A stretch of DNA of 16,137 nt from a virus. Taxonomy: Duplodnaviria > Heunggongvirae > Uroviricota > Caudoviricetes. Below are positions 7,759 through 8,916 of the stretch, one piece after another. Each line of letters opens with the position of its first letter. Position 1 is the first letter of the stretch. The stretch lies in the IMG/VR virus record IMGVR_UViG_2671180543_000010, one strand, 5' to 3'. The notes beneath the pieces were generated by a model. That model was not told the origin of the DNA and made no database searches. It saw nothing but the letters and a program-made list of their open reading frames with translations. The position numbers were made by a program, and so were the translations under genes.

Positions 7759-8916
7759 TTAATCGTCGTCTTCCGGCAGTGCCAGAATCTTGATCGCGTT
7801 CGAATCCACCACGCCACCGCCTAAATATTTTTGCGTGAAAATTTTGATGAATCCTGGTTCTGTCAGGTTGTCCGGTCTGGTGCGAACACCTGTTTCGTGA
7901 TCAACAATGTAGTAACCGCGTTTGAAGTCACCCAGGGCAATAACGTTATCAGGCATAAACTCCAGATATTCGACCGGAAGGCCCAGCAACGTATCAGGAT
8001 CACCCGCCTGTAAACGGTCGCGCCAGATATAATCACCGTTCGCGTTCTTCACCTTCTGAAGTTTTGCCGCCGTCGTGGAGTTAACCACTCAGACCGCGTT
8101 TTTGCGGTATTTTTTACGTAATGCAAATTTCAGGTCGATCAGCGGGTCCGCAGATGTCCACGCCAGAGATTCGGAAGGTTTAATTACCTGCAACGTACCA
8201 AAATCACGCTCTTTGTCGTTCTTCTCTGCACGGGGTACGGATAAAAAACCTTTTGCTTTTTTGTCACCGTCGCCCACAACCAGATCGCTTTCTTCGGTTT
8301 CCGTGAAGGTGTCGCCAATCTCACCCGTCAGCCATGAAAGGATGTCCACATCGGAAAAATCCACGATTTCCTGTGTGGTGCGCGGGTACGCATAGACCGG
8401 ATACAGCTTAATGCTCACCTCGTTAATCTGCGGGGTGCTGGTCTGTTCGCGTGCCTTACCCTCTTCACCGTGGTTAACGGTCGCACCGCCAGCGGAAACA
8501 AGCTGCTTAAACTCGTTGCTGCTGATTTTCTTCACGGTACAGATGCGACGCATGGTGGATTCATCCGCCAGCATTCGCATGATTTCGGTGTTCAGTTCAG
8601 GGATAACGGTATAACCACCATCAGCGGGAACGCCTGTACTTAATGCGCGGGTTTCACCGGTCAGAATGTAGTTACGTAGTTCTGCGGGGTCAGTGGTCTG
8701 GCTGCTTTTACCTGGCTTGCTGCGCTCTTCGTCTGCAATGGCTTCAAGGCGGGAAATGTCTTTATCGAGGGATTCAGCTTTAGCGCGTAATTCGTCAAAT
8801 TTTGCGCCCTCAGCATCGTTAAGACTGCGGTTTTCTTTTTCAGCGTTCTCCAGCATGTCGCGCATCTGATTTTTAATGGCGGTTTTCTGCTGGCGTAATT
8901 CGATTATTCTCTGCAT
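7759..8916 (-). pseudogene. HK97-family major capsid protein, single reading frame interrupted by in-frame TGA at 8089..8091 (fragments of about 275 and 109 aa)
   Basis: Track ORFs 8089..8964 and 7759..8088 are contiguous in the same frame; N-terminal coiled-coil delta-like domain and C-terminal LLGLPVEYLEF/GYYIVD core typical of HK97 MCP; start at internal Met with AGGA upstream. Confidence 0.8.

Follow-up and report, generated by a model that had tools for sequence, protein, structure and literature searches.

The major capsid gene of a phage-inducible chromosomal island in Shigella flexneri is split by a single in-frame TGA, which replaces the TGG codon of Trp276. The gene belongs to the HK97-fold family as a pseudogene and not as a working member. 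We consider it highly probable that this capsid-forming island of S. flexneri lost its capsid by the nonsense change W276*, was then inherited vertically, and lost its ability to transfer. The DNA analysed is a stretch of 16,137 nucleotides (IMG/VR virus record IMGVR_UViG_2671180543_000010), referred to below as the window.

A single in-frame TGA splits the major capsid gene

Translation of the minus strand from 8964 to 7759 gave a frame that is open throughout apart from one internal stop, around which the product reads ...ALRKKYRKNAV*VVNSTTAAKLQKV.... The whole gene (7759-8916, minus strand) comprises 385 codons, and its start is the ATG at 8916, as indicated by annotated homologues, and not the GTG at 8964. 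The premature opal stop (8089..8091, minus strand) occupies codon 276; the mutation reads as G to A in the coding strand and as C to T at window position 8089. Upstream of it lies the 5' part of the pseudogene with codons 1-275 (8092..8916, minus strand), which begins at the ATG at 8916 and matches PF05065. The 3' part (7759..8088, minus strand) holds codons 277-385 and the natural stop at 7759-7761. The GTG codon directly 3' of the TGA opens the 109-aa ORF, and E379A is a derived change within this part.

An earlier note on this DNA had described the ORFs 8089..8964 and 7759..8088 as lying in the same frame and being separated only by a TGA, which was confirmed by retranslating the minus strand, and its fragment sizes of 275 and 109 aa hold when counted from the ATG at 8916. 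It had further proposed that the joined fragments make a normal HK97-type capsid protein and that the stop falls inside the conserved core. Both proposals were borne out. With Trp restored, the 385-aa protein scored 208 bits against the Pfam profile Phage_capsid (PF05065; profile cut-off 24.2 bits) and covered profile positions 1-278 of 280; the stop therefore lies within the capsid domain. PF05065 matches are on record for both fragments as well. The uninterrupted frame expected of an HK97-fold capsid gene was not found, as it is broken by the TGA at codon 276.

The restored protein also matched the solved structure PDB 9GYI (EcCIEDL933 capsid, chain B) over all 385 residues with E = 2.5e-253, and this full-length match places it in the HK97 fold by structure. 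9GYI is a cryo-EM model of the T=4 capsid of EcCIEDL933, which has the HK97 fold and overlays HK97 gp5 at an RMSD of about 1 Å (10.1101/2025.02.11.637232). Like the HK97 gp5 family, the restored protein spans nearly the whole PF05065 profile; unlike HK97 gp5, to which it is distant by sequence, its gene is interrupted. [quoted passage not shown] An AlphaFold model (E. coli representative as first row) reached a mean pLDDT of 51 and was used for local secondary structure only. Residues 250-330 had pLDDT values of about 65-78, and W276 was placed in a strand (275-278) that is followed by a helix (280-286). W276 is thus a conserved aromatic residue, probably a buried one.

The ancestral codon is TGG

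Over 101 bases around the codon, the sole difference between the window and two E. coli homologues is TGA in place of TGG. With TGG, a 35-mer that has the codon at its centre occurs at 356 places in 339 complete E. coli genomes; neither the TGA nor the TAG version had a single match in the complete E. coli genomes, for which the TGG version served as a working control. IMG/VR viral contigs covering the codon had TGG at 51/51 loci, down to about 65% protein identity, and W276 was invariant in 27/27 aligned proteins (66-99% identity). The Rhodobacter gene transfer agent capsid, a distant relative, has Phe at this position. Since TGG and its Trp are invariant in the orthologues, the TGA is a one-base nonsense mutation. 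The earlier note had suggested looking up this residue in orthologous capsid genes, where Trp, Cys or Arg would speak for a point mutation; the invariant Trp gave this answer. Both the mutation and its ancestral state are hence read directly from the compared genes.

When the capsid region was compared with complete E. coli genomes, none was more than 98.9% identical. About 6% of the complete E. coli genomes carry the capsid gene, in some cases twice or three times, which shows that one chromosome can host more than one related cf-PICI. On 17 contigs (e.g. CTT28135.1; E. coli 1.2264), E. coli has its own 109-aa version of the C-terminal fragment (P0018). It begins at the same GTG and ends in ...ELPQDDD, and no copy was present in the complete RefSeq E. 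coli set. Based on this protein sequence, a few E. coli may carry a stop at codon 276 or a lesion nearby. Two 275-aa E. coli proteins (P0151 and P0152) were rejected as stop alleles: they are labelled partial, come from contigs of about 3 kb and are most likely cut by the contig ends and not by a stop.

The TGA allele is widespread in S. flexneri

The TGA sits in a gap-free stretch of 10.6 kb, over which six other assemblies and one metagenome contig are 99.8-100% identical to the window. Seven loci were inspected (six NCBI assemblies and one ENA gut metagenome), and the identical split was found in 7/7. The exact 275-aa and 109-aa products each occur on at least 1000 contigs (3556 collection blocks), which come from NCBI, ENA and Logan, and the fragments were deposited by several submitters as 'bacteriophage protein [Shigella flexneri]'. 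The spread of the allele through the population is thus directly observed. Among species representatives, an exact 53-mer containing the TGA matched only S. flexneri SFBU1023, whose locus is 100% identical to window positions 7761-15760. Judged by these matches, the window is S. flexneri DNA.

Relative to its nearest E. coli allele, the capsid of the window carries P2Q, W276* and E379A. Exact look-ups located 360 contigs that encode an uninterrupted S. flexneri protein (P0150) with Q2, W276 and E379, and a full-length protein with Q2, W276 and A379 was absent from the protein collection. In strain 2850-71, the 109-aa fragment retains E379. From these allele combinations, the simplest history would begin with Q2, followed by W276* and last by E379A, which lies 3' of the stop; a dead 3' end would tolerate such a change. 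Two of the loci (L007 and L009) come from a lineage that has diverged further and whose capsid gene differs at two synonymous sites, 243 and 369. Since they carry the TGA and yet differ at these sites, the mutation predates their split. According to this scenario, an intact, Q2-bearing island would have been acquired, W276* would have arisen later within S. flexneri, and the TGA allele would then have been inherited vertically to become what is now the majority allele of the species.

The host element is a cf-PICI of the EcCIEDL933 type

Based on gene content, gene order and flanking repeats, the element that hosts the gene is a cf-PICI of the EcCIEDL933 type of about 14.6 kb, and the word 'island' in the earlier note was correct. 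Full-length sister loci place it between phoQ and roxA. phoQ occupies positions 1-1461 according to the gene content of the window, and from about 1542 onward every gene is on the minus strand. The 21-bp direct repeat that flanks the island (CGGTGTAGTTAATGGTGTAGT) has its phoQ-side copy at 1542..1562 (minus strand) and a second copy just past the window end, upstream of int; in one sister locus (L005), it was found at both ends of the island, about 14.5 kb apart. With an integrase, an AlpA-type regulator, a primase/replicase, a size of about 15 kb and flanking att repeats, the island has the backbone of a PICI.

Following the coordinates, the minus-strand genes encode a 93-aa ORF, TerL, TerS, a 60-aa ORF, HNH and the connector genes, and further up the portal, prohead protease and capsid, small ORFs, a D5-type primase, a DUF4222 protein, a 248-aa ORF, AlpA and the integrase. 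The packaging genes thereby have the cf-PICI order (capsid, protease, portal, head connectors, HNH, TerS, TerL), and the capsid gene is the first gene of the packaging operon. Family matches on the minus strand identified the large terminase with ATPase and nuclease domains (2553..4214), the HNH endonuclease of the packaging module (4807..5247), the head closure or head completion protein (Phage_HCP, 5599..5937), the 403-aa portal protein (5934..7145), the prohead serine protease (Peptidase_S78, 7147..7719), the primase/replicase (D5_N, DUF5906 and Pox_D5, 10623..12371) and the AlpA-type excisionase/regulator (14345..14533), all of which are intact in the window. The small terminase (Terminase_4, 4198..4554, minus strand) enters an N run (4549-4603) with its first codons, and the head-tail connector gene (5247..5602, minus strand) is unreadable in the window because of a second N run (5402-5537) and bad edges at 5388-5398. 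The 409-aa tyrosine integrase (14908..16137, minus strand) has its start codon at the window end. Searches with Pfam and PHROGs found no tail or lysis families among the island ORFs, and several small ORFs lack an assigned function.

This set of genes is that of EcCIEDL933, the prototype cf-PICI of E. coli O157:H7 EDL933 (10.1101/2022.09.08.507074), which likewise has int, alpA, replication genes, capsid, protease, portal, connectors, HNH, TerS and TerL and is free of tail and lysis genes. The restored capsid is identical to 9GYI except for a handful of substitutions, and the capsid DNA is 98.6% identical to O157:H7 strains. Unlike EcCIEDL933, the S. flexneri copy carries W276* and E379A and has a mosaic replication and regulation module with partial matches to the E. 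coli relatives compared. Related S. flexneri elements are mentioned in the cf-PICI papers (10.1101/2022.09.08.507074, 10.1101/2025.02.11.637232).

The interval between capsid and primase is mosaic as well, as seen when window positions 9583-10059 were compared with 9500-10195 of another locus (L004). Of the PerC-like and SSB genes found in the E. coli relatives, the window retains only short partial matches, and other small ORFs (PHROGs 994 and 27268) occupy their place. The 248-aa ORF (13541-14287, minus strand) adjoins alpA, has no Pfam or PHROGs match and is kept in all S. flexneri copies; at its place, the E. coli relatives have a hypothetical gene of similar size.

A consensus scan also detected a terminator-like, G+C-rich hairpin with a T-rich tail (7728..7749, minus strand) between the capsid stop and the protease start. 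This putative partial terminator might keep the capsid mRNA above that of the downstream genes. On the 5' side of the capsid gene, two identical terminator-like hairpins (AGCCGGAGCAATCCGGCT and then a T run) occur at 9543-9560 and 9180-9197 (minus strand); the second separates a 74-aa ORF from the capsid start. Both could serve as regulatory terminators in front of the packaging genes.

The capsid stop is so far the sole lesion of the island in most assemblies

The two N runs of the window comprise 55 bases (4549-4603) and 136 bases (5402-5537), where sister assemblies have about 2 and 76 bases, respectively. The gap edges at 4535, 4540 and 5388-5398 show T/C/A-to-G miscalls that make G runs, and the sequence flanking the first gap partly overlaps. 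The N runs resemble gaps left by scaffolding where contigs end in poor sequence, and they give rise to false frame and amino-acid changes in TerS and in the head-tail connector (98 aa), both of which are intact in sister assemblies. The remark of the earlier note that all other head genes look intact is therefore supported indirectly, through the sister assemblies, because two of these genes contain N gaps in the window. An apparent second lesion in the connector (a frame change with 59 extra bases in tblastn) was rejected, as it is the N gap with its miscalled edges. In good assemblies, all other island genes are intact, and the capsid stop is so far the sole lesion of the island in most assemblies.

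Individual copies carry further changes. The TGA-bearing ENA gut metagenome locus (L006) has a second nonsense change in the portal gene, CAG to TAG at about codon 388 of 403 (window-equivalent 5984). In L007 (CP026810.1), an IS1 is inserted in the small-ORF region (window-equivalent about 12900-13100), and single-base deletions (window-equivalent 3256 and 12890) split TerL and a 77-aa ORF. As CP026810.1 has a broken phoP too, these deletions may stem from faulty assembly. In E. coli 14EC001 (L001, 6124-7173), an IS1A lies between the head closure and portal genes, and the head closure gene is annotated with 303 nt versus the usual 339 nt. This insertion would be an independent disabling of the packaging module.

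Loss of the capsid would abolish transfer of the island

Translation would stop after residue 275 and the product would lose the strand with Trp276, the next helix and the last 110 residues. With domain extents taken from the description of the EcCIEDL933 capsid, the 275-aa part would comprise the N-arm and the E-loop, together with the N-terminal stretch that is cut off during maturation and a portion of the P and A domains. The lost part would hold residues essential for capsomer contacts, and the island would fail to build its small (T=4) heads.

It was previously shown for EcCIEDL933 that mutating each packaging gene spares replication and abolishes transfer, with one exception: loss of the hypothetical gene 1792 reduced transfer severely but did not abolish it (10.1101/2022.09.08.507074). 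Plasmid complementation in trans restored transfer of the mutants, and the capsid genes of the helper phage were irrelevant to it (10.1101/2022.09.08.507074). In the EcCIEDL933 capsid, K290D, E319K and R345D, all downstream of position 276, each abolish transfer (10.1101/2025.02.11.637232). Since the knock-outs as well as these three substitutions abolish transfer, truncation at residue 275 should prevent head assembly. The earlier note had offered a capsid-defective island as one of three options, and this is the best supported of them, given the loss of 110 residues that include K290, E319 and R345. Because the cf-PICI family cannot use helper-phage heads and the island would have lost its own, neither packaging nor transfer of the island would be expected. 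Its integration, excision and replication genes are intact. We infer that capsid assembly and transfer are lost, both by extrapolation from the published experiments with the near-identical EcCIEDL933. W276* is most likely a lineage-fixed loss-of-function mutation that would leave the island without heads of its own.

A premature stop in the first gene of an operon can reduce downstream expression via Rho-dependent polarity. As the capsid gene is the first of its operon, the TGA could in this way lower expression from protease to terminase.

We compared pN/pS values within the modules of the island. For the packaging module, pN/pS was 0.07-0.11 between the S. flexneri island and three E. coli relatives, versus 0.53-0.66 between the window and the TGA-bearing L009 and L007 (9 non-synonymous and 4-5 synonymous differences; Fisher p ~0.001 for the contrast), although comparisons within a species inflate pN/pS in general. 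Five of the non-synonymous differences between the window and L009 fall in the portal gene. For the replication module, pN/pS between the window and L009 was about 1.0 (7 non-synonymous, 2 synonymous). Since this module is relaxed too, the relaxed pN/pS is not attributable specifically to the loss of the capsid; these sequence comparisons are consistent with neutral decay of the island as a whole. It could be argued that the intact state of the other genes reflects continued selection. However, the copies diverge by about 0.2%, and at this level hardly any additional lesions would be anticipated.

Phage head genes with nonsense mutations made in the laboratory give elements that are head-defective, still replicate and can be rescued in trans. 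Unlike these, the mutation described here is natural, fixed in a lineage and located in a satellite and not in a phage, and no suppressor tRNA is known in the host. It also resembles the pseudogenes in defective prophages and other mobile elements of Shigella and other host-restricted pathogens, being a single nonsense change fixed in a gene-losing lineage. In-frame stops are commonest in mobilome genes (PMC7918605). The genome reduction of Shigella is well documented, and much of the gene loss is attributed to insertion sequences (PMC7373316). The island capsid differs from such cases in that it was lost by a point mutation.

Readthrough, restart and recoding are unlikely to rescue the gene

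The reading that survives best next to a plain loss of function is a leaky gene, in which near-cognate Trp-tRNA reads the UGA and supplies enough wild-type protein for occasional heads and rare transfer, so that the island would be attenuated. UGA is the leakiest stop in E. coli, where readthrough results from competition between Trp-tRNA(Trp) and RF2 and leads to insertion of Trp (PMC10570021, PMC7918605). The residue inserted in this way is the ancestral residue of codon 276, and the other packaging genes are intact in good assemblies. Because the UGA is leaky and readthrough inserts Trp, a trace of full-length wild-type capsid is likely to be produced. It is doubtful whether this would be enough. 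A T=4 head needs about 235 subunits (10.1101/2025.02.11.637232), which would have to assemble amid the truncated protein, and the 275-aa fragment in large excess could poison assembly. In addition, the stop is not conserved outside the lineage (0/356 E. coli copies, 0/51 IMG/VR loci), the portal and other packaging genes gather non-synonymous changes, and E379A arose downstream of the stop. No stimulatory structure was detected downstream of the UGA: the 81 nt from the stop had an MFE of -21.7 kcal/mol versus a shuffle mean of -19.7 kcal/mol (z = -0.70). Taken together, we regard a functionally leaky gene as unlikely.

A related possibility is that the TGA allele is not dead, either as part of a conditionally mobile satellite or because the 275-aa fragment is retained for interference. 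As readthrough restores Trp and plasmid-borne capsid rescues EcCIEDL933 mutants, the island could persist as a conditionally mobile element with rare transfer, via leaky decoding or heads borrowed from a second cf-PICI in the cell. In the case of interference, the abundant 275-aa fragment could hinder capsid assembly of incoming phages or satellites. We regard a retained function of either kind as improbable.

Gene callers annotate the 109-aa product, and the GTG directly follows the TGA. Ribosomes might stop at the UGA and restart at the adjacent GUG (UGAGUG) to give two working polypeptides that co-assemble. However, no Shine-Dalgarno-like sequence precedes the GTG (AAAAACGCGGTC), the cut lies inside the predicted beta-strand 275-278 of the domain core with the invariant Trp276 wholly lost, and none of the relatives checked has a split capsid gene. 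A split but functional capsid is therefore very unlikely.

The earlier note had also considered a sequencing or assembly error in a single record of a gene that is really intact; the assembly of the window is indeed imperfect (two N gaps and G-rich miscalls at 4535, 4540 and 5388-5398), but this option is refuted by the same TGA in all seven independent loci and by the exact fragment proteins, each of which is on record for at least 1000 contigs, and we give it almost no credence.

Programmed recoding of the UGA, as selenocysteine or by an alternative code, has a practically negligible probability: nothing more than the in-frame UGA itself speaks for it, whereas every orthologue checked has TGG (356/356, 51/51 and 27/27), as has the intact S. 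flexneri allele, the hairpin after the UGA is no stronger than in shuffled sequences, and the host is an ordinary Escherichia/Shigella with the standard bacterial code in which neighbouring window genes end in normal stops. The lack of a recoding signal is a direct result of these comparisons.

Discussion

The preferred reading, loss of the capsid by W276*, describes an ordinary pseudogene that arose by one inherited nonsense change, and it leaves the current understanding unchallenged. A limited literature search found no published description of the capsid defect of the S. flexneri cf-PICI. For annotation, the finding means that the two 'bacteriophage protein' ORFs present in thousands of S. 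flexneri genomes are the halves of one inactivated capsid gene, and that the element hosting them is a cf-PICI and not a prophage remnant. The TGA allele may serve as a lineage marker. Together with the intact allele found on 360 contigs, it provides a natural pair within S. flexneri for the capsid dependence of cf-PICIs. It represents a natural, fixed capsid knock-out in a satellite family that is defined by building its own heads. In most S. flexneri, the island is probably locked in the chromosome and would no longer be spreading.
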